IMG/VR virus record: IMGVR_UViG_3300009658_000001
Source of the DNA: a virus
Reading direction: 5' to 3' (one strand)
Length of the DNA: 51,901 nucleotides
In this document: positions 18,177 to 51,833 of the stretch, piece by piece
Layout of the letters: each line of letters opens with the position of its first letter
How positions within the stretch are numbered: the first letter of the stretch is position 1
Notes under the pieces: generated by a model
What the model was told of the DNA's origin: nothing
Database searches by the model: none
What the model saw: the letters and a program-made list of their open reading frames with translations, nothing else
Made by a program: the position numbers and the translations under genes

Positions 18177-18742
18177 GCCGGATCGTGCTGGAGGGGCCAG
18201 ACCACGCCGGCAAGACCACGCTCGCGAAGCGGCTGTGCACGATCACCGGTGCCAAGTACCACCACCCGGGCGGCGCACCCGCCGACGAGACGGCGGAGCG
18301 GGCGTGCCTCATGGAACAGCAGCTCCTGATCGAGCGCGCGGGCCCGCTCGTCCTCGACCGCGTCACGTGCGTATCGCAGCAGGTGTACAACCCGAACGAG
18401 GCCCTCGACCCCGTGCGGACCCGCTGCCTGGACACCATGTGCACGTCGCCGTTCGTCTTTGTGGTGTACTGCCGCCCGCCGAACGAGCACCTCGTGGACG
18501 TGGGCAATTACACCTGGCGCCCCGAAGAGACTGAGGAGCACCGCCAGAAAATCGTGACGAGGGCCTTCGAGTGGGTGGAGCGGTACGACCGCGTCATGGA
18601 GAAGGTGCCGCACCTGTCGTACGACTTCAAGGACGTCGCGGCGGCCGAGACGCTCGAGACCGCGCTCATCGGCGCGCTCACCGAGGACGGCCTCTGGATG
18701 CAGTGGCTGAGCGCAACGGTCCTATCGGGGGGTCGGAGATGA
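18173..18742 (+). CDS. Thymidylate-kinase-like dNMP kinase
   Basis: ATGA overlap start. It has the P-loop LEGPDHAGKTTLAKRL and a DRV..SQQVY motif. Confidence 0.7.
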   Translation: MSRIVLEGPDHAGKTTLAKRLCTITGAKYHHPGGAPADETAERACLMEQQLLIERAGPLVLDRVTCVSQQVYNPNEALDPVRTRCLDTMCTSPFVFVVYCRPPNEHLVDVGNYTWRPEETEEHRQKIVTRAFEWVERYDRVMEKVPHLSYDFKDVAAAETLETALIGALTEDGLWMQWLSATVLSGGRR

Positions 18743-19545
18743 GGCTGGTCAGGACCCCGTTCAACCGCGACACGTTCTACGAGGCCTATCAAGCGGTCAT
18801 GCTCGCGCACGAGTCGAGGCCTCGGGGCCAGCTCGTGCGCGACCTCCGCGGGGTGTGCCTCGTGTTCGACCTCGACCAGCCTCTGCTGACGTCGTTCGAG
18901 GACCGCAAGCTGAACCTGAACTACTGCAAGCGGGAGTGGCTGTGGTACCTCGGCGCTGACCCTTACGACGACAGCATCGTCGAGCACGCCAAGATGTGGG
19001 CCAAGTTGAAGCAGCCGGACGGCCGCTACCTCAGCAACTACGGCCAGTACGTCTTCGGCGGGCGCTCGAGTCAGTTCGCGTACGCGGTGCACCAGCTGCG
19101 GGTCGACCCTGACAGTCGCAGGGCGAGCATCGTGCTGCTGGACCGCGACCACCTGTTCTTCGAGAACGTCGACACGGTCTGCACGTACGCCATCAACTTC
19201 GCGATCGTGCGGGGCCGCTTCAACATGACGGTGCACATGCGCAGCAACGACGTCGTGTTCGGCCTCACCAACGACGCGTTCTGCTTCTCGCAGATCGCGG
19301 AGTTCGCGTACCAGAAGCTGTTGCAGTGGCACCCGAACCTGCTGCGCGGCGAGTACGTCCACATCGCCGACTCGTTGCATGTGTACGAGCGGCACTTCGA
19401 GATGCTCGAGCGAATCCTGGAGAGCCCGAAATGGTCGCCGATCGACGTGCCTCGCCCCACGTTGGCAGAGGTGCGGAAGCTGATCAGTTCGCGCGGTCAA
19501 GAGGGTGAGGGAGTGTACTGTGACTGGCTCAAGACCGTCGATTGA
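18739..19545 (+). CDS. Thymidylate-synthase-fold dCMP hydroxymethylase (T4 gp42-like)
   Basis: ATGA overlap start. SNYGQYVF, DPDSRRASIVL, DTVCTYAINF, HMRSNDVVFGLTNDAF and SLHVYERHF parallel T4 gp42 (MRSNDVVFGFRNDYAW) as recalled from memory. An Asp occupies the base-specificity position. Confidence 0.8.
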   Translation: MRLVRTPFNRDTFYEAYQAVMLAHESRPRGQLVRDLRGVCLVFDLDQPLLTSFEDRKLNLNYCKREWLWYLGADPYDDSIVEHAKMWAKLKQPDGRYLSNYGQYVFGGRSSQFAYAVHQLRVDPDSRRASIVLLDRDHLFFENVDTVCTYAINFAIVRGRFNMTVHMRSNDVVFGLTNDAFCFSQIAEFAYQKLLQWHPNLLRGEYVHIADSLHVYERHFEMLERILESPKWSPIDVPRPTLAEVRKLISSRGQEGEGVYCDWLKTVD

Positions 19546-26495: not shown

Positions 26496-27076
26496 AGCAC
26501 ATCATGATCGACCTCGAGACGATGGGTCTGCGCCCCGACGCGGCCATCGTCTCGATCGGCGCCGTCCACTTCGAGGGCTTCACCGACCAGTCCCTCGACC
26601 ACGGCACCGTGCTGGGCCACAACGACCTGCGGGTGGTCGACACCCTGCACGTCGCCGTGTCGCTCAAGTCATGTCTCGACGCCGGCCTCACGACCGATCA
26701 GTCGACCGTTGACTGGTGGGCCAAGCAGTCCGCTCAGGCGCGGTCGTCCTGGCAGCAAGAGGGCGCGCCGACGCTCCTGGAGGCGCTGACCCAGCTCTCC
26801 AGGTGGGCGCTGAGGGACTCGTCCGACCGTCAGGTCTGCCCCTGGGGCAACGGCGCCGACTTCGACCTCGTGCTGCTCAAGAGCGCCTACGGCGCGATCG
26901 GGGCCGATCCACCGTGGCGCTACTACAACCATCGCTGCTACCGCACGGTCAAGGGACTATTCCCTGTGGCCGAGGTGCCTCGGCAGGGGACGCACCACAA
27001 CGCACTGGACGACGCGATGCACCAGGTCTCGACGCTCAGGCAAATCGTCCGCAGCCACAGGCTGCGCATCGTCTAA
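26492..27076 (+). CDS. DEDD-family 3'-5' exonuclease
   Basis: ExoI motif IMIDLETMG and ExoIII motif HHNALDDAMH. GTGA overlap start (ORF track start 26459). Confidence 0.75.
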   Translation: MKHIMIDLETMGLRPDAAIVSIGAVHFEGFTDQSLDHGTVLGHNDLRVVDTLHVAVSLKSCLDAGLTTDQSTVDWWAKQSAQARSSWQQEGAPTLLEALTQLSRWALRDSSDRQVCPWGNGADFDLVLLKSAYGAIGADPPWRYYNHRCYRTVKGLFPVAEVPRQGTHHNALDDAMHQVSTLRQIVRSHRLRIV

Positions 27077-27085
27077 GGAGGCTGC

Positions 27086-27439
27086 ATGGCGACCAAGAAA
27101 CAAGAGCTCGTGCACGGCTGCTTCGCAGACGCGCACGACGGCGAGCCGCTGTTCGTGCTGCGCAGCACGGACCCCCGCGCGCCGGCCGTGGTGCGAGAGT
27201 GGGCCCGGCTGTACCTCGCGAACCGCGTGAGAGCGCTGAGGGACCCCGGCGAAGGCGCCCCCGAGGAGGCCCGCGCCGCCTACGAGGCGGAGCTGGCGCG
27301 GCGCGAGGCGAAGTACGTCGAGGCCAACGAGCTCGCCGACCGCATGGACGCGTACCGCCAAGCGCTCGAGGGCGCCGAGGCGAGCGGAATGGACCCGCAG
27401 GGCTGTCGCGAGGTCGCGGCGCGCGCGGTCGCGCCATGA
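27086..27439 (+). CDS. Hypothetical protein
   Basis: 117-aa ORF with an RBS (aaggagg). Confidence 0.5.
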   Translation: MATKKQELVHGCFADAHDGEPLFVLRSTDPRAPAVVREWARLYLANRVRALRDPGEGAPEEARAAYEAELARREAKYVEANELADRMDAYRQALEGAEASGMDPQGCREVAARAVAP

Positions 27440-28227
27440 TGACCGCCCACCTCGACGACTACACCGTCAAGGTCCACGAGCACGGCTTCGTGCGGCTGCG
27501 CAACTGCGCCGGCCCCACGCGGCGCGACGAAATCGTGACGGTCTTCGAGGACTCACAGGTCCCGTCCATCGTCAGGCACTTCGACGCGGACGACGTCGAC
27601 CCCGCGCAGGCGGCCCGCATGTCGTTCGGCGGCATGGGCAAGGAGCGCTCGCGCGACGCGGACCTCAAGCTCGCCGCCTACCTCATGCGGAACGCACACA
27701 CGAGTCCGTTCGAGATGGTGCAGGTGTGGCTCGAGATGAAGCTCCCCATCTTCGTTGCGAGGCAGCTCGTCAGACACCGCACGGCCCGCCTCAACGAGGT
27801 CAGCGGCCGCTACGTGACGCTCCCCGCGGAGTGGTACGTGCCTGCGCTGGAGGACGTCGTCCTACAGAGCGCCGACCGGAAGCAGGGAGGGCGCGCCGTC
27901 GACTTCGACGACCCAGAACAGGTCGCGTCGGCCATCGAGTACCGCACCCGGTTGCAGGAGTCGTGCGCCCGAGGGTACGAGGCCTACGAGAGGTCCGTCG
28001 GCGACGGCGTGGCCATGGAGCAGGCGAGGCTCAGCCTGAGCCTCAACCACTACACCCACTGGCTGTGGAACCAGGACCTGCACAACCTCTTCCACATGCT
28101 GAGCCTCCGCGACCACTCGCACGCGCAGCCCGAAGCGAGGGCCTACGCACAAGCCATCGACCAGCTCGTGCGGCAGGTGCTCCCCGAGTGCTTCCGCCTG
28201 TACGACGAGTTCCGGAGGCGCGCGTGA
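27436..28227 (+). CDS. thyX: FAD-dependent thymidylate synthase ThyX
   Basis: ThyX signature RHRTARLNEVSGRY. ATGA overlap start. The upstream part of the 503-aa track ORF was rejected. Confidence 0.85.
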   Translation: MMTAHLDDYTVKVHEHGFVRLRNCAGPTRRDEIVTVFEDSQVPSIVRHFDADDVDPAQAARMSFGGMGKERSRDADLKLAAYLMRNAHTSPFEMVQVWLEMKLPIFVARQLVRHRTARLNEVSGRYVTLPAEWYVPALEDVVLQSADRKQGGRAVDFDDPEQVASAIEYRTRLQESCARGYEAYERSVGDGVAMEQARLSLSLNHYTHWLWNQDLHNLFHMLSLRDHSHAQPEARAYAQAIDQLVRQVLPECFRLYDEFRRRA

Positions 28228-29208: not shown

Positions 29209-29448
29209 GTGATCGACGAGGAGTTCCTCAAGCTCGCGCCCACCTGCAAGGGCTGCGGGCGCATCATCGGCCCCTGGAGGCCCGGCGGTGAGCGGTCCGT
29301 CACGATCGTCCACCGCCTGACCACGTGGTCGGACGGTCTCAAGCGCTACGGGCCGGCCGAGCAGTACCACAGCGCGTGCGCCCCGAAGAGGCCCAACGGC
29401 GAGCCCTACCCACCGAACCTCGTGATCCTCCTCGAGGAAGGCCCATGA
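29209..29448 (+). CDS. Hypothetical Cys-containing protein
   Basis: 79-aa ORF containing CKGCG...HSAC. Confidence 0.5.
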   Translation: MIDEEFLKLAPTCKGCGRIIGPWRPGGERSVTIVHRLTTWSDGLKRYGPAEQYHSACAPKRPNGEPYPPNLVILLEEGP

Positions 29449-29747
29449 CCAAAGACCAACTCAACCAACTGTACCGCGACCAAGGCTGGGGCCGCCTCGC
29501 TGAGGCCGCGCTGGGCATCGAGCCGTACGACGTCGAGTCACAAGCGAGGCGCGTGGCCCAGTACGCCGTGGCGAAACACAGCGCGCCCCTGCTCGACACC
29601 ACGGCACAGCGCCTCTTCGCGGCGCTCCTCTTCACCGTCATCAACCCGGACGTGCGGCTCTGCAGAGAGACCTACGACGAGCTCGCCAAGGTCGCCTTCG
29701 ACGCGGCAGAGGCGTTCGTCGACGAGTCCAGAAGGAGGCTGCGGTGA
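29445..29747 (+). CDS. Hypothetical protein
   Basis: ATGA overlap start. 100 aa. Confidence 0.5.
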   Translation: MTKDQLNQLYRDQGWGRLAEAALGIEPYDVESQARRVAQYAVAKHSAPLLDTTAQRLFAALLFTVINPDVRLCRETYDELAKVAFDAAEAFVDESRRRLR

Positions 29748-29977
29748 TCGTCGTGACCGGAGGGGCGACCGAGCGCCGCGGGCTCCTCGTACAGTTCCAC
29801 GAGGAGGACCTCCGCGAGCTGAAGGAGGCCCTCGACGCGCTCGAACAGGGGATACACCTCGACAACGCCCACGACCTCAACCGTGGCGCCCCGATCTCCA
29901 AGCGCTTCCCCGAGTGGGCGCGCCGACTCGAAGCCGCGATCGTCGCCAAACTCAACGACAACCGGAGGTTCCCGTGA
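29744..29977 (+). CDS. Hypothetical protein
   Basis: GTGA overlap start. 77 aa. Confidence 0.5.
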   Translation: MIVVTGGATERRGLLVQFHEEDLRELKEALDALEQGIHLDNAHDLNRGAPISKRFPEWARRLEAAIVAKLNDNRRFP

Positions 29978-30489
29978 TCGACCTCCCGACGGGTCGCTCG
30001 CCGCACGACCTCCTCCAGGAGCAGCAGGTGGGGCGGCCCAACGGCGTCTGGAGGGTCCTCGTCGTGTGCCAGCTCCTCAACCGCACGCACGGGCGCCAAG
30101 TGAGGCCCCTCGCGGACGAGCGCTACGGGGCGCCGCTCTTCGTCCGATGGCCGACGCCCCACGCGATGTCGCTCGCGCGACTCCCCGAGCTCCAGCTGCT
30201 GCTGAGGCCGCTAGGCTTCGCGGAACAGCGCTCGCGCAGCCTCAAAGCGATGAGCGCCCAGTACAACGCCATGCTCTTCGCCGACCCGGAATTCTGGCGC
30301 GGCTCCGAAGACGGTGAGTGGTGCAAGGGCCTCCAGGGCTGCGGACAGTACGCCAAGGAGTCGCTCGACTTGGTGGTTTACGGGCGACTGAGCGCACCGA
30401 CCACCGACCACTGGCTCACGAAGTACCAGCAGTGGCGGCTGAGCCAGGCCGCGGGCACCGCCGAACTTGACGACATGGAGGCCTCGTGA
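29974..30489 (+). CDS. MBD4-like HhH-GPD DNA glycosylase
   Basis: GTGA overlap start. SPHDLLQE, QLLNRTHG, LLLRPLGF..QRSRSL, LQGCGQYAKESL and DHWLTKYQQW parallel the MBD4 glycosylase domain as recalled from memory (LNRTSG, LLKPLGLYDLRAK, LHGIGKYGNDSY, DHKLNKYHDW). Confidence 0.6.
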   Translation: MIDLPTGRSPHDLLQEQQVGRPNGVWRVLVVCQLLNRTHGRQVRPLADERYGAPLFVRWPTPHAMSLARLPELQLLLRPLGFAEQRSRSLKAMSAQYNAMLFADPEFWRGSEDGEWCKGLQGCGQYAKESLDLVVYGRLSAPTTDHWLTKYQQWRLSQAAGTAELDDMEAS

Positions 30490-31602: not shown

Positions 31603-31626
31603 CAGTGCCGTGAAGAGCGGTCGATT

Positions 31627-31680
31627 CGGGCCCCGCAGCACGTCGCACATCGGCGTTCGCGGGGCCCGAGTTACTTTGCG
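31627..31680 (+). terminator. Possible terminator hairpin after 31306..31602
   Basis: A 10-bp stem, CGGGCCCCGC / GCGGGGCCCG, with a 22-nt loop and then agttacttt. The U tract is weak. Confidence 0.4.
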
Positions 31681-31746
31681 GGAGGGGGCGCTAATGTGTT
31701 CCGGAGCGAACTTACGGTACGAACTAAAGTACGTAGTCGGAGGGTA

Positions 31747-31824
31747 CGTCCGGGAGTTTAGTTTGCGCTGCCGGGTGTCCCGGCACCCCTCCTTGTAGTT
31801 ATATACGTTACCGGCTCCCGGACG
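31747..31824 (+). repeat. GGCTCCCGGACG element, copy C
   Basis: Same architecture as B: CGTCCGGGAG ... GCCGGGtgtCCCGGCACC ... tatatacgttaccGGCTCCCGGACG. Confidence 0.7.
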
Positions 31825-31853
31825 TTCCGGAGTCATAAAACTTGGAGAGTGCG

Positions 31854-32252
31854 ATGAAGAGGTGGACCGAAGAGGAGCGCGGTGGCTCCGGAATTGATTC
31901 GCAGGGGAGGGTCCGCTGCCGTGACAGGTACGCGTACCAGAGACTGAGGGCCTTTGGCTTCTCGAAGCAGTTCATGATCGACCACTGGTACGTGCTGGAG
32001 CGCGACCGGGCACCGCCGATGACCATGCTGCAGAGGAAGGCCTGCAAGGTCTGCGGGGTCGTGAAGCGAAACGACTTCAAAGAGTTCCCGAAGGAGCAGT
32101 GGGGAGGCGCCGGGAAGCACACGACCGCCGACACGTGTCGGCTGTGCATGAGCAAGGCGATCTCGGACGGGCGCTTGCGAGAGATGGCGAAGGAGTGGGA
32201 GCAGCAAGTTGCGTACGAACAGTACGGCAGTGAAATGTGGGAGCCTAAGTGA
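31854..32252 (+). CDS. Hypothetical protein with two CxxC pairs
   Basis: ATG at 31854 after ggagag. It contains CKVCG...CRLC. The start codon lies inside a GTGCGATG motif. Confidence 0.5.
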   Translation: MKRWTEEERGGSGIDSQGRVRCRDRYAYQRLRAFGFSKQFMIDHWYVLERDRAPPMTMLQRKACKVCGVVKRNDFKEFPKEQWGGAGKHTTADTCRLCMSKAISDGRLREMAKEWEQQVAYEQYGSEMWEPK

Positions 32253-32439
32253 GCGCGGCCGGGAGACCTTCGCACAATGGGGCATAGAACGTTGTCCGGC
32301 TTGGTGAATTTACTTTGGGGGGACAACGTTGTGCGATGGTGTCCCCCTGGGCCGATCGATCAAATAAAACAGTCCGCGTTTTGGTGGACATCGTACATCG
32401 TGCGGTGCGATGTCGGTTGCACATAAGGTGTTGTCGCCG

Positions 32440-32700
32440 TTCGTTAGGGCCGGCAATCCGGTTGTATGTACCTAATTATAAAGTTAGATAGAATAAAAAA
32501 TAGCAGGGCCTAATAGTCCATGGTATGTATTGCCTGGAGGTGGATTATCGTATGTATTTTTTATTTTATATATATTGGTTCGTTAAATATGGTACACAAA
32601 AGCGGTAACGAAGTTTTTACGTTCCGTGATAATAACTTATGTAAACGGACCTCGACACCTGTCATGGGACATTTATGGGACATGGGGTTTAGGTCCCTGA
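32440..32700. other. Strongly AT-rich non-coding segment in an otherwise GC-rich genome
   Basis: It contains strings such as taattataaagttagatagaataaaaaatag and gtattttttattttatatatattgg, plus short repeats: GTATGTA three times and ATGGGACAT twice. Confidence 0.8.
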
Positions 32701-32848
32701 ATTGTATCCAGGTTGGGCCCTCGAGGATCGGCCACGGTGTCCGATGGACGTCGTCCTACGAACGCCCAGCTCAAAAAGTAAAATGTTTGATCAAAAAACA
32801 GCGCCCCTGGATCACGAAACCCGCTACAGATCAGTTCCTGGCATGGGC

Positions 32849-32860
32849 GGCTCCCGGACG
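32849..32860 (+). repeat. GGCTCCCGGACG element, copy D, core only
   Basis: Exact 12-mer without a recognisable 5' arm. Confidence 0.5.
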
Positions 32861-32916
32861 ATCCTCCGAAAGTACTTTGATCATGAATTATCAAAACCAA
32901 CGCTCTTCCCGACGTC

Positions 32917-32935
32917 GGGCGCGGTACAATTGTAC
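32917..32935 (+). promoter_or_regulatory. Promoter, class II, containing the perfect palindrome GTACAATTGTAC
   Basis: GGGCGCGGTACAATTGTAC. The palindrome spans 32924-32935. Confidence 0.5.
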
Positions 32936-32970
32936 TTGAGCGTTGATGCTCGAGCAACTAGGAGAATTCG

Positions 32971-33531
32971 ATGACGAAGGTTTTTGATCCCGTGAAAGAG
33001 TGTTCCGCGCTGACGGCGCGACTGGAGGCCCTCACTGCTACCGTGGACGAGCTCCGGAGGGCGTTGGACGCGGGCCGCGTGGAGGCGGCCGAGCTGAAGG
33101 GCGTGCTCGAGGAGCTGGCCGCCTCGAACAACGCCCTCGTGGAGGGCCAGGAGCAGCTGGAGGCGTCGTGCGCTGAGCTGACCAACGAGGTCCGGGGGGC
33201 GCTGAACGGGTTCGAGGAGCCGGAGGGCGGTGTTCCGGAGGACGAGTCCGACGAGCAGCGCGCGACGCGCGTGGGGCTGCTCGCGAGGGTGACCGATTTG
33301 GAGGCCCGCGTGCGCGGCCGCAACCGGAGCGCGCCCACGAAGCGCAACATGACGGACGCCGACGCGGTCCGGGTGCTGACCGGGGACGTGACGGCGCTCG
33401 GGCACAAGGAGGCGGGCGAGGCCGTCGGCCTCACGTACGCCCAGGTGTACTCCTGCCGCATGGAGTACACCTTCAAGCACGTCCACAAGAAGCTCCGCGA
33501 CGACGGCTGGAAGAACCCGTTCACGAGGTAG
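32971..33531 (+). CDS. Coiled-coil protein with a C-terminal HTH-like domain, paralogue of 34404..34700
   Basis: The C-terminal MTDADAVRVLTGDVTALGHKEAGEAVGLTYAQVYSCRMEYTFKHVHKKLRDDGWKNPFTR aligns with the C-terminus of the minus-strand 98-aa protein. Confidence 0.6.
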   Translation: MTKVFDPVKECSALTARLEALTATVDELRRALDAGRVEAAELKGVLEELAASNNALVEGQEQLEASCAELTNEVRGALNGFEEPEGGVPEDESDEQRATRVGLLARVTDLEARVRGRNRSAPTKRNMTDADAVRVLTGDVTALGHKEAGEAVGLTYAQVYSCRMEYTFKHVHKKLRDDGWKNPFTR

Positions 33532-33538
33532 GTTTCGG

Positions 33539-33566
33539 GGGCCGCCGTTGCGAGCGGCCCGATTTT
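33539..33566 (+). terminator. Rho-independent terminator after 32971..33531
   Basis: Stem GGGCCGC / GCGGCCC with loop cgttgcga, followed by gatttt. Confidence 0.7.
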
Positions 33567-33577
33567 GGGCTCCGAAG

Positions 33578-33673
33578 CCCGCTGGGGCTGACGGGCGCGG
33601 GCGGACCCGCTGGGGCTGACGGGCGCGGGCGGACCCGCTGGGGCGGGGACCCGAAGACCGAGGCCCGCTGGGG
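33578..33673. repeat. CCCGCTGGGG iterons: four copies, the first two as exact 28-bp tandem units
   Basis: Copies at 33578, 33606, 33634 and 33664. The unit is cccgctggggctgacgggcgcgggcgga. The array lies between two convergent terminators. Confidence 0.85.
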
Positions 33674-33686
33674 ACCGGGCGCGCGG

Positions 33687-33708
33687 AAAAGGCCGCCCGC
33701 GGGCGGCC
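33687..33708 (-). terminator. Rho-independent terminator of the minus-strand operon
   Basis: Palindrome GGCCGCCCGCGGGCGGCC followed on the minus strand by TTTT. Confidence 0.7.
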
Positions 33709-33762
33709 TCGGTCAGCGGTTGCGCTTGTGGAGGACGAGGAGGTAGGCGATCAGGAGGGCGG

Positions 33763-33894
33763 TCACTTGCGGCTCCATACCGCCAGGACCGCGCCGGCGG
33801 CCAAGGTGACGACCCCGGTGTAGAGGCCGCCGAAGTGGGTCACGGCGGGCGACGCCACGACGAGGGCGAGGGCGAGGGCTGCGCGGACGTTCAT
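33763..33894 (-). CDS. Small membrane protein of 43 aa
   Basis: Internal ATG with GGAG about 9 nt upstream. The sequence is hydrophobic: MNVRAALALALVVASPAVTHFGGLYTGVVTLAAGAVLAVWSRK. Confidence 0.4.
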   Translation of the reverse strand: MNVRAALALALVVASPAVTHFGGLYTGVVTLAAGAVLAVWSRK

Positions 33895-33975
33895 CGAATG
33901 GCTCCGGACGGTAGGAGGATTTTCCAGCGGCGTTCGACGTCGCACCAGTAGAAGAAGATCGAGGAGCGCGGGGCG

Positions 33976-34212
33976 TCAGGCATACAGGCCTCCCTGAGGA
34001 ATTCGCACGTCGGTCACGTAGTCCGTGGTGCTGCAGTAGAAGTAGTCCCCGGGCGGCAAACCGTTCTGTGCGACGAGCTCCGGAGCGAGGCGCACGTTGG
34101 GGTCGGGGCTCTTGCCCAGCTGAAACCAGTGAAATGCTACGCGCTTGGTCTTGTAGACGCAGCCTTCGCGCATTTCAGTGATCTTGAACACGTCCATCTT
34201 GACGTACATCAT
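33976..34212 (-). CDS. Hypothetical protein of 78 aa
   Basis: ATGATG start at 34212 within the track ORF 33976..34266. Confidence 0.45.
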   Translation of the reverse strand: MMYVKMDVFKITEMREGCVYKTKRVAFHWFQLGKSPDPNVRLAPELVAQNGLPPGDYFYCSTTDYVTDVRIPQGGLYA

Positions 34213-34403
34213 GATCACAGTCCCAGCAAGCGGCGGAGCCAGTGCTTCGGGCGGGGCCGGACGCACGTCGACGGCACGGTCCAGGTTGGGAGGCTCTTCG
34301 CCAGTTCGAGGTTCGCGGTGTATTCGGACATGGTGTTCTCCAAGGTAACTGGGTCAGGGAGTTGGCCCAGTTTATTGGAGGGAGGCCGAAGCCTCCCGGG
34401 GTA

Positions 34404-34700
34404 TCACTTCGTCCAGGCGTTCTTGAAGCCGTCGTTCTTCAGCTCCTTGTGGACGTCCTTGAAGGTGAACTCCAGCCGGCAGCTGTAGATCTGGCCGTAG
34501 GTCAGCCCGAGCGCCTCGGCCGCGGCCTTGTGCTTGGCGTCCTTCAGGTCGCCGGTCAGGATCCGACGCGCGTCGTCCTTGGTCATCTCCTTCGCTTCGG
34601 CCTTCGTCGGCTTGGCTTCGAGGACTTCGATCCGAGCTTGGAGTTGATTCACGAGTTCGACGAGTTCGTTGATCGTGATTTGCTTGGTTGCGTTCGACAT
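34404..34700 (-). CDS. Coiled-coil protein with a C-terminal HTH-like domain; first gene of the only minus-strand operon
   Basis: GGAG lies 7 nt upstream of the ATG. The C-terminal MTKDDARRILTGDLKDAKHKAAAEALGLTYGQIYSCRLEFTFKDVHKELKNDGFKNAWTK is paralogous to 32971..33531. Confidence 0.6.
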   Translation of the reverse strand: MSNATKQITINELVELVNQLQARIEVLEAKPTKAEAKEMTKDDARRILTGDLKDAKHKAAAEALGLTYGQIYSCRLEFTFKDVHKELKNDGFKNAWTK

Positions 34701-34808
34701 GAGTTTCTCCGGTTATGTGTGTCGGAAGTGACACACAAGATACTTATCGATTCCAATGAGTATCTTGTGTATCAGTTGTAAGATTCTGTAATTTGCCTTT
34801 CAAGTGAT

Positions 34809-34880
34809 ATTTGGTGTGCGATGAATTCATTATACTGATGCCGGAGTCGGGTGCTGACCGAGTGTGTAATGATTTGTATC
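34809..34880. repeat. 72-bp perfect direct repeat, copy 1
   Basis: atttggtgtgcgatgaattcattatactgatgccggagtcgggtgctgaccgagtgtgtaatgatttgtatc. Confidence 0.9.
34829..34857 (-). promoter_or_regulatory. Candidate leftward promoter 1 for the minus-strand operon, inside 72-bp repeat copy 1
   Basis: A perfect TATAAT lies on the minus strand (34834..34829), followed by CATCGCAC, the reverse complement of GTGCGATG. The -35 is weak. Confidence 0.4.
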
Positions 34881-34896
34881 AGCTTTCGTATGCATC

Positions 34897-34968
34897 ATTT
34901 GGTGTGCGATGAATTCATTATACTGATGCCGGAGTCGGGTGCTGACCGAGTGTGTAATGATTTGTATC
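34897..34968. repeat. 72-bp perfect direct repeat, copy 2, with a period of 88 bp
   Basis: Identical to 34809..34880. The 16-bp spacer is agctttcgtatgcatc. Confidence 0.9.
34917..34945 (-). promoter_or_regulatory. Candidate leftward promoter 2, inside 72-bp repeat copy 2
   Basis: Same sequence as copy 1, shifted by 88 bp. Confidence 0.4.
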
Positions 34969-35154
34969 TGAGATTGTAACGGAAAATGTAATAAGATTGT
35001 AACGATCATCGTTGACCGAATTAGTCAACGATCATTACGCACAGTTACATCGGTTACAGATTATTACGCGAGGGGCCCCCTTCGCCCGGCCACGCCCGCG
35101 GGCCAGGCTTCCAGGCATTTTGAAGAATGTGGCCAGAAACAGTGTTCCGGGCGG

Positions 35155-35351
35155 TCGATGTGCGATGTGCGATGAAGCATGATCGGAAGCATGATCGGAA
35201 GATCGATGAGGCATGATCGGAAGATCGATGTGGCACGATTGCAGAGATTTGGTGCGTGCTGCGCGAATAAGGTCGATGTGCGATGAGGCATGATTGGAGG
35301 ATCGATGTGCGATGTTTACAAGGGTTCGCCTGCACAAGTCGATGTGCGATG
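35155..35351. repeat. Array of TCGATGTGCGATG and GCATGATCGGAA short direct repeats
   Basis: TCGATGTGCGATG occurs at 35155, 35273, 35302 and 35339. GCATGATCGGAA occurs at 35177, 35189 and 35211. Degenerate variants lie between them. Confidence 0.85.
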
Positions 35352-35401
35352 TTTCACGAATTTGAGTCAGGGTCCTAAGAACTTTGATCATTCAGTTCCA
35401 C

Positions 35402-35440
35402 GATCAAAGTCCTCCAGGGCGACCTCCACCGCGGTATAAT
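35402..35440 (+). promoter_or_regulatory. Late-operon promoter with a consensus TATAAT but a poor -35
   Basis: GATCAAAG (35402-35409) ... TATAAT (35435-35440). The upstream ttgatcattcagt.c.acgatcaaag block is shared with 23643-23667. Confidence 0.55.
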
Positions 35441-35462
35441 ACCGTCCAAGGAACGTCGCGCG

Positions 35463-35798
35463 ATGCCGAACCAACTCACCGTGATGCAGGCCCGGCACTC
35501 AGGAGTGCTGGCCGTCGTCAACGCCCGCTACCCCAACTACCACCCGGTGTTGGCGATGGTGGACCTTGCGCACCGGGCCGACGTCATGGGTCAGGACCCG
35601 AAGCTGGAGTTCGAGATCCACAAGGCGGTTGCGCCATACTGCGAAGCGCGGCTCAGCTCCGTGGAGGTGAAGCCCCCGCAGGACCCCGCCCGCGTCATCG
35701 TGTCGCTCTTCGAGGACGTGCAGCTCGAGAGCGGTGAAACTGTTTCGGTCGAGGTTCCGCTGGTGCGGGAGCTCGAGGAACTTGTGCCACTGGACTGA
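35463..35798 (+). CDS. First gene of the late operon; possible small terminase subunit
   Basis: 111-aa ORF downstream of the TATAAT promoter at 35402..35440. The DPKLEFEIHKAVAPYCEARL pattern resembles some small terminases. Weak call. Confidence 0.35.
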   Translation: MPNQLTVMQARHSGVLAVVNARYPNYHPVLAMVDLAHRADVMGQDPKLEFEIHKAVAPYCEARLSSVEVKPPQDPARVIVSLFEDVQLESGETVSVEVPLVRELEELVPLD

Positions 35799-38014: not shown

Positions 38015-38368
38015 GTGGCGAACGCGGCGCCGGTCGGGTCCGGCTGGGACGTCACCAACCCGAAGAAGCCGGTCGTCGAGCAGGACCCGGACGCCAGCCT
38101 CATCTGGCAATGGGACTGGTCGACGTGGTGCACCGAGCGAGGCACCACGATCGCGAGTGTCGCCGCCACGGCGGAGCTCCCGCTGCTGGCGGCCGACGAG
38201 GCCGTCACCGACGACGACAAGGGCGCGCTGATCACGGTCTCGATCGACCCCGACGAGTACGACGCGACCGCTCACCTGCGGAAGAAGTTCGGCGTCACGT
38301 GCCGCGTGACGTCGGCGGACGGACAGGTGGACGACATGACCTTCTGGTTCCGCCTCGTGGAGAAGTGA
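38015..38368 (+). CDS. Conserved hypothetical phage protein
   Basis: GTG start after aggag. 117 aa. The pattern DPDASLIWQWDWSTW...TIASV is seen in many phage loci. Confidence 0.45.
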   Translation: MANAAPVGSGWDVTNPKKPVVEQDPDASLIWQWDWSTWCTERGTTIASVAATAELPLLAADEAVTDDDKGALITVSIDPDEYDATAHLRKKFGVTCRVTSADGQVDDMTFWFRLVEK

Positions 38369-39790
38369 TTGGCCGTCGAGTTCAAGCTCTACCCCAAGCA
38401 GAGACGGGCCCTCATGTCGAGGGCCCAAGAAATCCTGTACGGGGGCGCCGCTGGTAGTGGCAAGAGCTACATGATGCGCGTTCTCGCCATCGTACTGTGC
38501 ATGGAGATACCGAACATCAAGGTGTTCCTCTTCAGGCGCATGTACAAGGAGCTGTACATCAACCACGTGTACAGCCCTGACGGCTTTCTGGTGATGCTGA
38601 AGGAGTTCGTCGACCGGGGCGAGGTCGTCTTCAACAAGTCCGACGGCGTCATCAACTTTCCCTTCAACGGGGCTCAGATCTACCTCTGTCACGCGCAGCA
38701 CGAGTCGGACATCAACACGTACCTCGGCGCGGAGATCCACGTGCTCCTGATCGACGAGGCGACGCAGTTCACTGAGAAGATGATTCGATTCATCCGTACC
38801 CGCGTGCGGCTCGGCGGGTTGACCGTCCCGGATCAATGGAAGAGCCTTCTGCCGAAGATCATCTACGGGTCGAACCCGGGCGGCCCGGCTCACTCGTACT
38901 TCAAGCGCGGATTCGTGAGTCACGGCGAGGGTCACGTGTTCAACGCGCCGGTGCAGGACGGTGGCATGTCGCGGGAGTATGTGCCGGCGAAGTCCAAAGA
39001 GAACGTCATCATGACCCGCAACGACCCGAACTACGGTCAGCGGATCATGGGCCTGGGCGACGACCGACTCGCCCTGGCGTACCTCGAGGGAAACTGGGAC
39101 CTCGAGGAGGGCGCGGCGTTCTCCGACCTGTGGGACGCCAACGTCCACGTTGTGCAGAACATCGAGATCCCGCGGACTTGGTCGATCGACCGGTCGCACG
39201 ACTACGGCTACTCCGCGCCGGCGGCCACTCTGTGGTGGGCCGAGTCGGACGGGACCGCGTGTGTGATGAACGACCGGCGCGTGGTGCTGCCGAGGCGGAG
39301 CATCGTGCTGATCGGTGAGAAGTACTTCGCCGACAAGGAGGACAAGGGGCTGCGCCTCATGCCGGCGGAGCTCGGCCAGCAGATGCATGACTACGAGTCG
39401 ATGAACGGGTTCCGGGCGCGCACGCAGGCCGGCCCGGCGGACTCGAGCATCTTCGACAAGGACCGTGGGTCGACGAGCGTGCACGACGAGTACGTGCGGC
39501 GCGGGATGAGGTTCACGAGGGCGGACAAGCGCCCGGGGACGCGCGAGAGAGGCTTCGTGCTGGTCCGGCAGGGACTCAAGGCCGCGACGACGCGAAACTT
39601 CGAGGCCCCGTGGCTCCTGGTGCACAGGAACTGCGTTCACACTGTTTCGCAGATCGCTGAACTGCCGATGAGTTCGAGCAACCCGCAGGACGTGGACACT
39701 GCAGCGAACGACCACATCTACGACGCGGTGAGGTACAGGGTGCTCAAGGGCATGATGCTCGGGGCTCAGGCGCAAGTCTACGGGACCTGA
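38369..39790 (+). CDS. terL: Terminase large subunit
   Basis: Walker A motif LYGGAAGSGKS and Walker B motif LLIDEATQF. TTG start immediately after the upstream stop. Confidence 0.9.
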   Translation: MAVEFKLYPKQRRALMSRAQEILYGGAAGSGKSYMMRVLAIVLCMEIPNIKVFLFRRMYKELYINHVYSPDGFLVMLKEFVDRGEVVFNKSDGVINFPFNGAQIYLCHAQHESDINTYLGAEIHVLLIDEATQFTEKMIRFIRTRVRLGGLTVPDQWKSLLPKIIYGSNPGGPAHSYFKRGFVSHGEGHVFNAPVQDGGMSREYVPAKSKENVIMTRNDPNYGQRIMGLGDDRLALAYLEGNWDLEEGAAFSDLWDANVHVVQNIEIPRTWSIDRSHDYGYSAPAATLWWAESDGTACVMNDRRVVLPRRSIVLIGEKYFADKEDKGLRLMPAELGQQMHDYESMNGFRARTQAGPADSSIFDKDRGSTSVHDEYVRRGMRFTRADKRPGTRERGFVLVRQGLKAATTRNFEAPWLLVHRNCVHTVSQIAELPMSSSNPQDVDTAANDHIYDAVRYRVLKGMMLGAQAQVYGT

Positions 39791-46532: not shown

Positions 46533-46876
46533 AGGCCTGGGTTCGATGGACGTCGGAGTGGGGTCCGAAGATTCGCAAGCTCATCGAGATTGAGCAGGCG
46601 AGCGGAAAGACCCCTCAGGCGCTCTTCGACGCTCCGGTCGCGTACGGATTCGAGAAAGAGCTGGTGCTGGCGTACAATTTTCTGGCTTCAAGGCGATCGA
46701 TCGGATTTGCAGCTAACCCGATACCGTTGTCCGAGATTCAGACGTACGTACAGATTTTTGGCCCTCCGCAGATGCCGATGAACATGTTCGTCGACCTGTT
46801 GGGGATGATGGATATAGAGTACCTGTCAAAGGTTCACGCGAAAAACCATGGCCACAAGCCTTCAGGTAAACGCTAG
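46149..46876 (+). CDS. Tail assembly chaperone G-T fusion by a putative -1 frameshift
   Basis: The -1 frame is open from 46502 to 46876. A G-run, ctgggggaag, at about 46518-46527 lies just before the G stop at 46530-46532. Confidence 0.5.
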
Positions 46877-49736
46877 TACCCAGCAGGCGGTGGGCGCGTT
46901 CAACGCGCTCGCTCAATCCATCGCGTCCGCGACTGCCCAGTTCAACAATCTGAACCGTGCGATGGCCAGTGGCAATACCATGGCCAGGAATTATTCTGGT
47001 CAGGTCACGGCGATCAACACCGCGTTCAACTCGCTCACGAGCATTCTGAGCGGAGTGTTCGGCGCGATTCAGAAGATCGGCGCTGGTATCCAATTCGTGT
47101 TCAGCTCGATCGTGAAAGAGTTGGACAAGCTGCAGGGCTTCAACGCCATTATGTCGGTCACGACGAAGTCGGCCGACGGCGTTTCCCAGAGTTACGACTT
47201 CTTGCGCAAGACCGCCGACAAGCTCGGCGTGCAGTTCGACGCGCTCACAGGTAACTACGCGAAACTTTTGGCGTCGATGCCCGCGACCAACGAGGGGCTG
47301 CGAGCGACGCAGAACGTCTTCACTGGCATCGCGCTCGCGGCGCGCACGTTGCACGCCAGCAACCAGGACACTCAACTCATGTTCTACGCCATCACGCAGA
47401 TGGCGAGCAAGGGCGCGGTGTCCATGGAGGAGCTGCGCAGACAGTTGGGCGAGAAGCTCCCTGGTGTCATGCAAATCGCGGCGAGGGCACTGAGTACGAC
47501 GCCCGAACTGCTCGAGAAGGCGATTCGTACTGGCACCGTCAATTCCGCGAAGTTTCTCGAATACTTCGGCGACGAGATGATTCGCACGTTTCAGGAGCCA
47601 GCAGAAAAGGCTTCGACGAGCGTGTCGGCGAGCATCAATCGTCTTACGAACGTGTGGGTGGACTTCGTCAAGGAGATCCTCGATTCCGGCGCCGGCACGT
47701 CGATCGCGAATATCTTCGACGCGATCCGTGAAAAGCTGAGCGATCCGTACGTCATTGAGCAGTTCGCCGAATTGGTCAAGCGACTCGCGGACCGATTCAC
47801 GGAGTTCGTCAAAAATCTGACGCAGGAGGACGTGCGCAACGGGTTCGACACGCTCGCCAACGGCGTCACGATGGTCGTCAACGTCATCGAAAAGCTCGTT
47901 TCATTGCTTCAGTGGGTCGTCAACAACGGCAAAACCGCCGGCGCGATCATCGGGGCACTTGCAGGCGGCGCTGCTGGCGCAGTGGCAGGTCCATGGGGCA
48001 TCGCTGTTGGGGCTGTTGCCGGAGCTGCGGGCGGCGCGTACGCGGGTTCCCAGCTGCAGTCGTCGCCGGAGCAGTTGGCTGCGCAGGGTCAAGCTCACGT
48101 CAACGCCGTCGAAGCGGCGCGCCAAAAGCGCCTCGATCAGCAGAATTTGCTGATGACGCAGATGATTCCACTCCTCGGCGAGTTCAAGGGACTGAAAACC
48201 TTGAGCGGTCTCGAAAATCTGTGGAAAGCGGAGAACCTCAACACGAGAACGCTCGAGCAGTTGAACGCGATTTTGAAGAATCCCGCGTTCAAGACCGACG
48301 CGCAGAAGGCTGACGCGGTCAAAAGTCTTGCGCAGTACGGAACGGTGTTGACCGCGCCCGGCAAGCTCTCTGACGTGATGGGTCCAGGTAAAGCAAAGGG
48401 TTCGAACAAGCGCGATCCGGTCGCGGACGATATGATGCGTGCCGTGGGCCTTGATCCGAAGTTCTACGAACACTTGGGCAATTACAAGAAATTGCTGGAC
48501 GCTGGCAAACTTGACGCTCAGCAGTACGAGGACGCGGTCACGAAGCTCATTCAAAAACAGCCATTCGCCATTGAATTGGCGAAGGAGGAGCGCAAGGAGC
48601 GGGAGCGTATCTCCAAGGAGACTACTGACTACATCACCTTCGTGCTGCGCGGCGTTCAGGCCAAGGAGCGCCTCAACGCGGCGTTGGACGAGGAGTTGCA
48701 GAAGACGCAGCTCCTAGGCCCGTACGCCGAGACAGAGGCTAAATTGATTCAGCAGGTGAACGACCTCAAAGAGGCCGGGGCGAGGGTCACTGGCGAAGAG
48801 GTTGATCTTCTGCGCGAGAAGCTCCGTTACCTTGACGAGGCACGACGGATTCAGTCTGCTGCACAAAACGTTCTTGACTCGACGGTGTACCGCAACCGTG
48901 GCACTGAAACTATGCTGCAGGGCATGGACCGTGCCGGCGAGTTCGGTGCTTCGAAACAGGACCTTTCGAATTACGCGGTTCAGCAGAGTCCGCAGCTGTT
49001 CTCTGGCACGGAAGAGTACTACGCGCTTCAGAGGCAGCAGGCCGACGATTTGATTGCGTACTTCGACGCGCTCCGTCAGCGTAACCTAATTTCCGAACAG
49101 ACTTACAGCTCTCTCGTGATGCAGCAGGAGGTGGCGCTTCACGCCGAGCGGCTCAAGAGCACCTCTGACTTTTTCGGCGGACTGGCCTCGCTCTCGAAGT
49201 CCGGTAACAGCAAAATCGCGGCGATCGGTAAGGCCGCGGCGGTGGCTCAGGCGACAATCGACGGCGTGTTAGCTGTACAGAAGGCGTTGGCGGCGCCGCC
49301 CGGGTGGCCGTACAACGCTGCGAACGTGATCGCGGTGGGCATCAGTGCTGCGGCGAACGTTGCACAGATCGCCGGCATCGGCGGGTTCCGCTCCGGCGGC
49401 TACACGGGCGACGTCGGGCGCGACCAGGTCGCGGGCGTAGTACACGGTCAGGAGTACGTGGTGAACGCATCCGCCACGGCCCGCAACCGTGCTGCGCTCG
49501 AAGCGATGAACGCGGGCTCCACGGTCGGCAGCGGATCACAGTACGTGGAAGTGGTCGTCAACAACAATGCTGCTGGCACTCAAGCGACGGCGGCGCAGCA
49601 GGACACGCCGGACGGCAAGCGCATCGAGATCACGATCGAGGAGGTCGTGGTGAAGAGCGTGCGGCGCGGCGGTCGCATCGCCGACGCGATGGAGGGTCAG
49701 TACGGGCTGAACCGTGCGGCCGGAGCGGTGCGCTGA
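46848..49736 (+). CDS. Tape measure protein
   Basis: 962-aa helical, Gly/Ala-rich protein in the canonical position. Confidence 0.9.
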   Translation: MATSLQVNASTQQAVGAFNALAQSIASATAQFNNLNRAMASGNTMARNYSGQVTAINTAFNSLTSILSGVFGAIQKIGAGIQFVFSSIVKELDKLQGFNAIMSVTTKSADGVSQSYDFLRKTADKLGVQFDALTGNYAKLLASMPATNEGLRATQNVFTGIALAARTLHASNQDTQLMFYAITQMASKGAVSMEELRRQLGEKLPGVMQIAARALSTTPELLEKAIRTGTVNSAKFLEYFGDEMIRTFQEPAEKASTSVSASINRLTNVWVDFVKEILDSGAGTSIANIFDAIREKLSDPYVIEQFAELVKRLADRFTEFVKNLTQEDVRNGFDTLANGVTMVVNVIEKLVSLLQWVVNNGKTAGAIIGALAGGAAGAVAGPWGIAVGAVAGAAGGAYAGSQLQSSPEQLAAQGQAHVNAVEAARQKRLDQQNLLMTQMIPLLGEFKGLKTLSGLENLWKAENLNTRTLEQLNAILKNPAFKTDAQKADAVKSLAQYGTVLTAPGKLSDVMGPGKAKGSNKRDPVADDMMRAVGLDPKFYEHLGNYKKLLDAGKLDAQQYEDAVTKLIQKQPFAIELAKEERKERERISKETTDYITFVLRGVQAKERLNAALDEELQKTQLLGPYAETEAKLIQQVNDLKEAGARVTGEEVDLLREKLRYLDEARRIQSAAQNVLDSTVYRNRGTETMLQGMDRAGEFGASKQDLSNYAVQQSPQLFSGTEEYYALQRQQADDLIAYFDALRQRNLISEQTYSSLVMQQEVALHAERLKSTSDFFGGLASLSKSGNSKIAAIGKAAAVAQATIDGVLAVQKALAAPPGWPYNAANVIAVGISAAANVAQIAGIGGFRSGGYTGDVGRDQVAGVVHGQEYVVNASATARNRAALEAMNAGSTVGSGSQYVEVVVNNNAAGTQATAAQQDTPDGKRIEITIEEVVVKSVRRGGRIADAMEGQYGLNRAAGAVR

Positions 49737-50843: not shown

Positions 50844-51833
50844 ATGGCCACTCCCGCGTACCCCAGCGCGCTCCCGCTGCCATACAGTTTCCGACTGACA
50901 GCGGCGGACCAGGTGTTGGCCGGTGACAGCGACGGTCCGAAGGACCTTCGTCGATTTACGCTCGTGCCGGGCGCGACGGTCGACGTCAGCTTTCGTTTTC
51001 TGCGGGACCAGTATTCGGCGTTCGTCAAGTGGCTCAAGGTCGACCTCAAGCGCGGTCTGAGGTGGTTCATGCTCCCGCTGCCGTCGGCCGCCGGCATCAC
51101 TCCGCACGTAGTGAGGTTCAAGGGTCGCCCGCAAGGATCGATGGGCGGCCACCGCTACTGGGAGGTGACGGCGGAGATCGAGATTCGTGAGCGGAGGTAC
51201 GCGCCACTGACCAACGTCGTCTTTTCTGAGGACTTCGAGAACGGTATCAGTGACTGGCAGACGAACGTTGGCGGCGCGAACTCCACCGCGTTCTTCAGCA
51301 TACAGCCGTCGCCCTACGGCTCGCAGGCACTGTTCGGCGCGAAAGTCACCGCGTTCAGCGCCGCGTCAGACAGGCGACGCAAGTTCTACTTCGCCGACGA
51401 AGAGCCGTTCAACCGATTCCAATGCAAAGGCATGATGCCCACTGGCGGCAACGCGAATGACGACAGTCCGTCCATCGCCGTGATCAACGCGGCCGGTACT
51501 GGTGTTTTCGCGATGCAGATTTCGCGCGAAGTCAGCTACGACGCGCAACAGCGGCCGGTCTTCAATCTTGGCGGCGAGTCGCTCTTTCCTGGCACCGTGC
51601 GCATTCCGTACGATGTATGGATGGAGTTCAATATCGCAGTTAACCCTGGAGCTGGTCAAAGCACGTACTTCATTCGACGACTGGATACGGGCGATCTGTG
51701 GGCGTCCGGGACTTTTGCCAACGATCATGGTTCGTACAAACTGTGCGCCGGCTTGCAGATTTACAGTGAAGCGAGCGCGGACTTTACGTCCCAAGCTGGC
51801 TACATCGACGATCTGATCTGCTACACGGAGTAA
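50844..51833 (+). CDS. Minor tail protein with a C-terminal lectin-like domain
   Basis: 329-aa ORF that ends inside the terminal repeat and is followed by the DUF1833 gene across the circular junction. Confidence 0.55.
   Translation: MATPAYPSALPLPYSFRLTAADQVLAGDSDGPKDLRRFTLVPGATVDVSFRFLRDQYSAFVKWLKVDLKRGLRWFMLPLPSAAGITPHVVRFKGRPQGSMGGHRYWEVTAEIEIRERRYAPLTNVVFSEDFENGISDWQTNVGGANSTAFFSIQPSPYGSQALFGAKVTAFSAASDRRRKFYFADEEPFNRFQCKGMMPTGGNANDDSPSIAVINAAGTGVFAMQISREVSYDAQQRPVFNLGGESLFPGTVRIPYDVWMEFNIAVNPGAGQSTYFIRRLDTGDLWASGTFANDHGSYKLCAGLQIYSEASADFTSQAGYIDDLICYTE

Follow-up and report, generated by a model that had tools for sequence, protein, structure and literature searches.

Direct terminal repeats (DTRs) at the ends of phage genomes are of known kinds, among them the T7 and the T5 type. 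Arrays of short repeats reportedly adjoin the terminal repeat of T7. In T3 and T7, packaging specificity resides near the genome termini, and the concatemer junction is where maturation begins (PMC3276506). The long terminal repeat of T5 carries pre-early genes and, at its inner end, a 1.66-kb stretch of conserved, non-coding and repeat-rich DNA (bioRxiv 10.1101/866236). Here, we report on a repeat-rich, poorly coding island at positions 31603-35462 of a viral DNA stretch of 51,901 nucleotides (IMG/VR virus record IMGVR_UViG_3300009658_000001; the whole stretch is called the window), which an earlier reading of its letters (the sequence-only reading) had proposed as a control region or a replication origin. 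From sequence comparison we consider it probable that the phage is non-lysogenic, that its genome is linear with the island as terminal region, and that the DTR was collapsed to one copy by assembly. The predicted DTR spans 32472-35102 (2,631 bp) and would hold the genes of two paralogous putative helix-turn-helix (HTH) proteins and a leftward operon.

Results

A terminal repeat in Effie and its predicted counterpart in the window

Since nucleotides 1-123 of the window are identical to nucleotides 51779-51901, the assembly closed into a circle, and the window is a complete circular metagenome contig with a unique length of 51,778 bp, from JGI sample 3300009714. In such a circularly closed assembly any terminal repeat would be collapsed. 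The genome is that of a tailed phage of ~51.8 kb and ~63% GC. Its terminase large subunit (TerL, 38369-39790) has homologs of 46-50% identity in Xanthomonas phage Xp15 and in Acinetobacter phages Effie and HHU4. A near-identity search of the island against isolated phages gave no match. Related phage loci and contigs are referred to by L-numbers, L064 being Effie and L001 the closest distinct relative of the window.

Effie is an isolate with a linear record, and this record carries a 3,598-bp DTR: positions 1-3598 equal positions 50001-53598 (3,099 nucleotides were compared, with no mismatch), and genes 10-60 recur as genes 750-800. The layout of this DTR is like that of the island, with an AT-rich left end, forward genes including one for a distant HTH-like protein, and a leftward operon with an HTH homolog; the late operon with TerL sits after and outside the repeat. 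The right end of the record falls inside a 50-nt element that had been singled out as a conserved core before the end was found within it. The end reads ...GGGGCCCGTAACCAGCCACATAGCCCGAGG/CCAGTTTCAGGGAAATTTTCA (...CCCGAGG/CCAGTTT; a slash marks an end or cut) and aligns to 35102/35103 of the window (GCGGG/CCAGG). At the left end, ...GTAAGTAG/CTACTTTTATATATATAAAGTTAGAAT, base 1 starts CTACTTTTATATATATAAAGTTAGAAT, which is preceded in the concatemer by TATGTAAGTAG, and this junction aligns with GTATGTAC/CTAATTATAAAGTTAGATAGAAT of the window. Because the DTR of Effie has matching boundary sequences and gene content, a DTR is predicted in the window with the following parts:

32462-32492, plus strand: predicted left end, with GTATGTAC/CTAATTATAAAGTTAGATAGAAT at 32464-32492, the cut lying between 32471 and 32472, give or take a few nucleotides
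32472-32970, plus strand: AT-rich leader of the predicted repeat, where GC falls to its genome-wide minimum (32471-32620)
32971-33531, plus strand: long HTH paralog (186 aa), with an extended coiled coil and the conserved C-terminal HTH domain
33763-34343, minus strand: two or three small leftward genes, recognised by periodicity of GC at third codon positions (GC3) and by gene calls in L002, L073 and L074
34404-34700, minus strand: short HTH paralog (98 aa), with a long N-terminal helix and a four-helix C-terminal domain in an AlphaFold (AF2) model of predicted local distance difference test score (pLDDT) 90
35072-35126, plus strand: cut-site element GGGGCCCCC...GCGGG/CCAGG...GGCATTTTGAAG, the predicted right end lying between 35102 and 35103

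Both predicted boundaries fall in conserved sequence, the right one inside the element, which occurs once per genome in ~48 loci, and the left one at a motif common to the window and five relatives. The predicted left cut coincides exactly with the onset of the genome-wide GC minimum. The sequence ATAAAGTTAGA is unique in the window, and the left-end block can be aligned among Effie, HHU4, L011, L004, L005 and the window.

The element takes the form GGGGCCC-N36-GGnATTTT in relatives, is 48-50 nt long, and was aligned nearly gaplessly across 24 loci. A profile built without the window, L001 and Effie has a single match in the window, at 35073-35126 (E 1.6e-4), and likewise one in L001, and matches ~48 loci of 38-65% GC once each, including Effie and HHU4. 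In all loci inspected the element faces the late operon, and relatives of 38-65% GC keep a fixed order from the HTH gene to the late operon: a variable short-repeat array, the element, and a second array. The first array is of the TTACA type in the clade of the window, and the second is GTGCGATG-like in the window, L001, L004, L005, L010, L012, L016 and L038. When the window is compared with L001, near-identity extends from -130 to +75 relative to the predicted right cut, and beyond these limits the two diverge. Nowhere else in the phage family is non-coding sequence as well conserved as in the element.

Two other identities of the element were considered and rejected. As a structured RNA or terminator it found no backing from RNAalifold, which gave no pairs for 24 sequences, or from single-sequence folds, which were inconsistent; in Rfam nothing reached the gathering threshold, with chance-level matches only by E-value. 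By eye it bore no convincing likeness to sigma-70 or sigma-54 promoters or to IHF sites, and a consensus scan was empty in the region. In Effie (L064), annotated gene 60 (3086-3589) spans AT-rich repeat DNA, has its start codon inside the element and shows no similarity to window proteins; it is probably not a real gene.

Effie and Xp15 (Alachuavirus), as well as Acinetobacter phages HHU4 and MD-2021a, have much in common with the window: a member of the HTH family, the 50-nt element, the order of the modules and a TerL that is related (46-50%). They differ from it in that their HTH protein is just 40-46% identical and their replication module is inverted. The flank motifs also differ, being GYRCYTGG in Effie and ATATGATA in Xp15, and the first late gene of Effie is not that of the window, which encodes a 111-aa protein. 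A search of the literature on Xp15, Effie, HHU4 and Alachuavirus found nothing on genome ends or on the island region.

Repeat arrays around the predicted boundaries

Repeat-rich non-coding DNA adjoins the predicted boundaries in the window and its relatives, with arrays on either side of the right boundary and on the outer side of the left one. Repeats of the GTGCGATG type lie ~60 nt outside each predicted boundary and are mirrored, running in reverse on the left flank and forward on the right. The repeats in and around the predicted DTR are these:

31849, 32331, 32405, 34816, 34904, 35160, 35167, 35278, 35307 and 35344, plus strand: copies of GTGCGATG, by exact 8-mer search
32318-32412, no strand assigned: left outer flank of the predicted repeat, with the GTGCGATG at 32331 in the loop of an 8-bp hairpin
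32389-32403, minus strand: tandem pair CATCGTACATCGTGC, ending 68 nt before the predicted left cut
34809-34880 and 34897-34968, plus strand: 88-bp direct repeat with a 72-nt perfect core and one GTGCGATG in each copy (34816, 34904)
34974-35068: inner flank of the right cut, with TTGTAAC twice (34974, 34997), the palindrome TCGTTGAC-N9-GTCAACGA, and GTTACA twice (35044, 35053)
35138-35146: near-palindrome AACAGTGTT
35155-35351, plus strand: right outer flank, with TCGATGTGCGATG at 35156/35163, 35274, 35303 and 35340
35174-35239: 12/22-bp tandem of GCATGATCGGAA and GATCGATGAG

The sequence-only reading had counted at least ten copies of GTGCGATG in the island, all in one orientation. The ten copies are found at exactly the coordinates it listed, and a genome-wide count gave 11, the eleventh at 46957; shuffled sequence yielded a mean of 3.5 and a maximum of 9. 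The single orientation stands for the exact 8-mer, which is always on the plus strand, and is limited to it because the degenerate form [GT][TC][GA]CGATG gives the reverse-strand pair at 32389-32403. Its further statement that at least three families of iterated motifs are present agrees with the 88-bp direct repeat, the 28-bp tandem described below, the 12/22-bp tandem and the TTGTAAC/GTTACA repeats.

On the right flank, where all five copies of the extended form CGATGTGCGATG are found (35156-35351), the start-to-start spacings of the motif are 7, 111, 29 and 37 nt; the remaining copies are hundreds of nucleotides apart. The first forward copy lies at +58 from the predicted right cut in the window and at +44 to +59 in the window, L001, L005, L012, L016 and L038, at +85 in L011 and at +91 in L004, and is always forward. 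On the left flank, the nearest GTGCGATG (32405) ends 59 nt ahead of the predicted cut. In the window and in L001, L005 and L016, a reverse tandem pair CATCGYACATCGYRC precedes the AT-rich end by 70-140 nt, and L013 has a related left-flank site with one full copy. In Effie the flank motif GYRCYTGG occurs four times at 21-bp phasing from +68 to +131 past the right end; of the 13 copies in the genome, 8 lie close to an end of the DTR.

Unlike the outer arrays, the two GTGCGATG copies of the 88-bp repeat lie within the predicted DTR. This repeat is not conserved in L001, and contig L081 breaks within it. The inner flank at 34974-35068 is near-identical in L001 while its own flanks diverge, and TTACA-type repeats at 10-11 bp phasing occupy the same place in L004, L005, L009, L012, L013, L016 and L018. 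At +36 to +40 relative to the predicted cut, the window shares the sequence ACA[GC]TGT with L001, L004, L011, L013, L016 and L018.

Some further observations concern the short repeats. L001 (5366-5408) and L003 (3-24) carry a tandem of six to seven copies of the 7-bp GTGCGAT where the window has two overlapping copies; this array expands and contracts by slippage. The motif also covers start codons, those of a 132-aa gene (GTGCGATG, 31849-31856) and of the 111-aa late gene (one-mismatch GCGCGATG, 35456-35465), and the long paralog starts with CGATG, which may be coincidence or a hint of action on mRNA. Six diverged relatives share, without mismatch, a 21-mer CTTAAGTTATTAATTTATAAC that is absent from the window with up to three mismatches allowed. 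It forms inverted pairs around the AT-rich left-end block in L005, L011 and L016, and its positions are:

L004: 8590-8610
L005: 7967, 8145 and 8430
L011: 7138 and 7361
L016: 6587 and 6748
L020: 10044
L007: 2810

Genes and other features of the island

The open reading frames (ORFs) of the island are few, as the sequence-only reading had described. Codon periodicity, strong in the flanking genes, is absent from a GC3 frame plot of 31603-31853, 32253-32970, 33532-33762 and 34701-35462 (~1.96 kb), and ORFs within these gaps are conserved only among near-identical strains. The AT-rich block of that reading is likewise present, the lowest-GC 150-nt segment of the genome starting at 32471 with 30.7% GC against ~63% overall, and folding confirmed its convergent terminators as a hairpin with a T-run at 33539-33566 (plus strand) and another at 33690-33712 (minus strand), both missed by a consensus scan. 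The two paralogs have a nearly invariant C-terminal domain in common. The leftward ORFs are periodic in GC3, in keeping with an operon, although the number of genes, given as four, is three to four by source gene calls. It is the only minus-strand operon, for the other gene-like minus-strand ORFs all lie inside plus-strand genes, Pfam backing the plus-strand gene in four of five. Our own GC3-based gene caller over-called antisense ORFs and was used for local checks only. Further features in and beside the island are:

31603-31853, no strand assigned: non-coding spacer that follows the final gene of the long rightward block, without codon periodicity
31638-31652, minus strand: motif-like site in the spacer, an inverted match to the motif array
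31769-31785: hairpin GCCGGGTGTCCCGGC in the spacer (-12.6 kcal/mol)
31854-32252, plus strand: 132-aa CxxC...CxxC protein, the last gene before the predicted left end, with strong GC3 periodicity
33539-33712: convergent-terminator region, with the 28-bp tandem CCCGCTGGGGCTGACGGGCGCGGGCGGA at 33578-33644 and an extra CTGGGG copy between the terminators
34726-34777, no strand assigned: palindrome with 22-bp arms just upstream of the short HTH gene (-29.7 kcal/mol as RNA)
35383-35462, plus strand: putative late promoter core, with TTTGATC at 35383-35389, GATCAAA at 35402-35408 (N12 apart), TATAAT at 35435-35440 and the Shine-Dalgarno sequence AAGGA
35463, plus strand: ATG of the first late gene, conserved, 111 aa

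The C-terminal 55 residues of the HTH family are almost invariant, and short (95-135 aa) and long (150-225 aa) forms recur that match the two paralogs. The family comprises >120 clusters at 90% identity and 249 at 50%, with six isolated phage records only. No Pfam, PHROG-function or NCBIfam assignment was obtained for the 98-aa protein. Against PDB its model matched best, and weakly (E > 0.6, template-modelling score ~0.4), the HTHs of sigma-70 region 4, KorA and GerE. Against BFVD the sole match below E 0.001 was Xp15 gp02, and annotated HTH proteins and HTH tails of homing endonucleases appeared at E 0.07-0.8 only. In view of the modelled fold the paralogs may bind DNA, although the fold matches have weak scores.

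The products of the small leftward genes (43-60 aa and hydrophobic, 78-96 aa, and 38-42 aa) are conserved in close relatives only and gave no family matches. In the terminator region, strains L073 and L074 differ by one 28-nt unit of the CCCGCTGGGGCTGACGGGCGCGGGCGGA tandem, and contigs L079 and L082 break there; CTGGGG/GCTGACGGG repeats are found also downstream of the paralogs in L004 and at the contig ends of L010 and L018. The AT-rich leader probably carries the promoter or promoters of the first gene, although a sigma-70 consensus scan gave no match there. The palindrome at 34726-34777 could be an operator or a 5' untranslated-region hairpin; in L001 a palindrome at the same place keeps the core CACAAGATA with changed arms.

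A late promoter had been placed at the right edge of the island. Its conserved core with TATAAT is there, the TATAAT now being corrected to the position listed, and 35383-35462 probably functions as that promoter. No good -35 hexamer is present in the core. These 80 nt are common to the window and L001, which diverge from each other in the 220 nt before them, and L004 has GATCAAAGG and TAGAAT at the same place. The short HTH gene adjoins the divergent 111-aa first late gene in 48 of 61 loci.

Two candidates for a small terminase subunit were rejected. The 111-aa first late protein gave a mediocre model (pLDDT 67) with no fold or sequence match, and the gene directly upstream of TerL matches the podophage fiber-tail adaptor Gp77 instead. 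The 132-aa protein has weak matches only, to a His-Me finger domain (E 0.0066) and to PHROG endonuclease VII (E 5.6e-4), and homologs in three clusters by a word-indexed search and in seven loci by tblastn. HNH genes are placed beside cos and terminase genes in HK97-like phages; matches this weak and homolog clusters this few do not suffice to assign such a role, that of an HNH partner of terminase, to the 132-aa protein.

Elsewhere the phage encodes portal and capsid proteins, a PrimPol-helicase, a family A DNA polymerase, an SNF2 helicase and a ligase. It also encodes a QueC-like protein (6299-7084), a carbamoyltransferase (16129-17781), a ThyA-like protein (18571-19545) and a ThyX fusion (26716-28227), a set which suggests modified bases in the phage DNA (7-deazaguanine and/or a hypermodified pyrimidine). 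Proteins encoded at 38015-38368 and 4062-4517 resemble the fiber-tail adaptor Gp77 and the fiber Gp80 of Ralstonia podophage GP4, and a 962-aa protein (46848-49736) may, by its size and position, be a tape measure, which would be odd beside podophage-type tail proteins. The ends of six independent contigs of near-identical strains (L075-L078, L081, L082) cluster at ~29300-30320, 1 kb of small genes, which suggests a strain-variable hotspot that breaks assemblies.

Discussion

A model for the genome ends

Our reading of the island as collapsed genome ends suggests the following course of events. In the replicating concatemer each unit would hold one copy of the repeat, and a sequence-specific protein would bind the outer arrays. 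The bound protein would position the terminase nuclease, which would cut at 32471/32472 for the left end and at 35102/35103 for the right end, and DNA synthesis would then give the second copy of the repeat, as it does in T7-type phages. Transcription of the late operon would start just past the repeat from its own conserved promoter core, and the repeat would carry a small self-contained and presumably early gene set, with the long HTH gene running rightward and the short HTH gene and the tiny genes leftward.

The lifestyle is consistent with this. The sequence-only reading had found no standard lysogeny module, and we agree: no integrase or repressor family turned up among the ~50 window proteins scanned, and the divergent partner of the HTH gene is the late operon, 762 nt off. 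Among 185,579 species genomes just one relative was found, on a 49-kb contig in a metagenome-assembled genome, which argues against a prophage lifestyle and fits a non-lysogenic phage.

Several points weigh against the predicted terminal repeat. The prediction rests on a single relative, Effie, which is 40% identical in the HTH protein and 46% in TerL, and its record is without repeat annotation; no paper on Effie was found, and experimentally determined ends are an assumption. It is also odd that its unique length comes to exactly 50,000 bp. Of ~70 related contigs, not one stops at a predicted cut, which is expected for assemblies but lends nothing to the prediction. No protein is assigned as the binder of GTGCGATG, and no small terminase subunit was recognised among the window proteins scanned. 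Finally, the fairly constant distance of 240-340 nt from the element to the first late gene would equally suit a transcription signal. Contig ends were also considered as physical termini in their own right and were rejected: many lie near the HTH gene, but their positions differ and fall inside tandem repeats, as assembly breaks would.

Alternative readings

The sequence-only reading saw a genetic switch or control region here, and this is reasonable in view of the HTH paralogs, the palindrome at the leftward HTH gene and the conserved late-promoter core, although it missed what we take to be the main function, namely genome termini, a terminal repeat and packaging signals. Control is compatible with a terminal repeat and becomes a rival only as the sole function, in which role we regard it as unlikely. 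The HTH paralogs, whose fold is confidently modelled, would then bind the palindromes and the repeats of the GTGCGATG and/or TTACA type; they would set when they themselves are expressed and would turn on the late operon, and the element would be a promoter or regulator site with no terminal repeat there. The conserved divergent pair of HTH gene and late operon in 48 loci is in line with this, as are the palindrome at the HTH promoter with its changed arms in L001 and the constant placing of the element upstream of the late gene; the absence of a -35 hexamer from the late promoter core suggests dependence on an activator. However, control leaves unexplained why the genome of Effie ends inside the element and has its other end matching the AT-rich block of the window. 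The arrays are anchored more tightly to the cut (+44 to +59) than to the late start codon (112-190 nt), the element has neither a sigma-70 consensus match by scan nor a sigma-54 pattern by eye, and no late promoter adjoins the mirrored copies at the other end of the repeat.

A bolder proposal keeps the terminal repeat and makes the coiled-coil/HTH proteins (98 and 186 aa) a new kind of genome-end recognition factor, which would bind the mirrored GTGCGATG arrays and direct the two cuts of the terminase. They may then act as a substitute for a small terminase, encoded next to their own sites. We regard this as speculative and rather unlikely.

It is still less probable that the element is a pac site for headful packaging, where one cut initiates a series, the virion DNA is circularly permuted and no exact 2.6-kb repeat exists. 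A conserved cut-site element flanked by repeat arrays is like other pac sites, and the assembly closes into a circle. TerL has only weak Pfam matches, to Terminase_3 and Terminase_6N, which are families that include headful enzymes; among solved structures it had no match. However, the Effie record has two exact ends and an exact repeat, with no permutation; a second boundary motif is also conserved in the window, and the mirrored outer arrays suggest two defined cuts.

The iteron-type replication origin put forward by the sequence-only reading, in which an initiator would bind the GTGCGATG repeats and the AT-rich block would unwind, found no support, and we think it very improbable. Short direct repeats are indeed strongly clustered, no DNA of the genome melts more easily than the AT-rich block, which has two to three motif copies within 140 nt, and a local minimum of cumulative GC skew lies near 31 kb, although the skew also tracks transcription, nearly all genes being on one strand. 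With a PrimPol-helicase and a DNA polymerase of its own, the phage must have an origin somewhere. However, no initiator gene stands beside the repeats, whose neighbours are the HTH paralogs, tiny ORFs and late genes; the replication genes end ~18 kb upstream, with the PrimPol-helicase at 7202-9631 (22 kb away) and PolA at 9673-11529. The island has no DnaA box with one mismatch allowed, and GATC is not enriched (29 of 331 sites in 7.4% of the genome). The repeat unit of 8-13 bp is irregularly spaced, as against regular iterons of 17-22 bp, and the main motif cluster is 2.6 kb from the AT-rich block, both of which coincide with genome ends in Effie. A lambda-type cos site, with short cohesive ends and one cosN, does not fit the Effie record, which has a 3.6-kb duplex repeat with two distinct boundaries.

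Comparison with known systems

If the predicted terminal repeat is real, it gives physical ends, packaging signals and a virion DNA length of ~54.4 kb for a widespread and almost unstudied phage family, made up of the Xp15-like and Effie-like phages and >100 metagenomic lineages of 32-65% GC. The 50-nt element would then be a sequence test for locating collapsed terminal repeats in the metagenome-assembled genomes of this family, and a tempting misreading would be corrected, as clusters of short repeats and an AT-rich block that look origin-like would here mark genome ends. With its conserved cut-site core, its mirrored outer repeats and its HTH proteins, the family would lend itself to work on the cutting of kilobase-long terminal repeats in a compact setting, and Effie, an isolate, could be the experimental model. 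The kind of repeat is known from T7-type and T5-type phages; new would be the cut-site element of the family, the mirrored outer arrays and the HTH family, on which no literature was found.

The likeness to iteron origins such as lambda ori, plasmid oriV and P4 ori/crr is superficial and consists in clustered repeats, an AT-rich block and a duplicated motif-bearing repeat (as in P4 crr), whereas the island has no adjacent initiator, no DnaA boxes and irregular spacing, and coincides with termini in a relative. Lambda cos (cosQ-cosN-cosB) is similar in its conserved cleavage core, surrounded by phage-specific repeats that bind protein and placed just upstream of the late or packaging operon. 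It is unlike the present case, with its 3.6-kb duplex repeat in Effie, its two cut sites 2.6-3.6 kb apart and no Nu1-like gene identified.

T7 and T3 have exact DTRs like the one predicted here, and lysis genes are interleaved with packaging genes there as here. Their repeat is 160-230 bp long and without genes, whereas the predicted repeat is ~2.6 kb and carries genes. Unlike T7, the phage of the window has no phage RNA polymerase, its TerL and boundary sequences are unrelated, no gp18-like small subunit was found, and its repeat motif lies outside both boundaries and is mirrored. The T5 repeat is larger, ~10 kb, and its repeat region has paired DnaA boxes, none of which were found in the island; no homologs of A1, A2 or dmp were found among the proteins scanned, and there is no evidence of a two-step entry of DNA. 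With the first-step-transfer region of T5 the predicted DTR nevertheless shares its general plan, that of a kilobase-scale terminal repeat carrying a few first-expressed genes.

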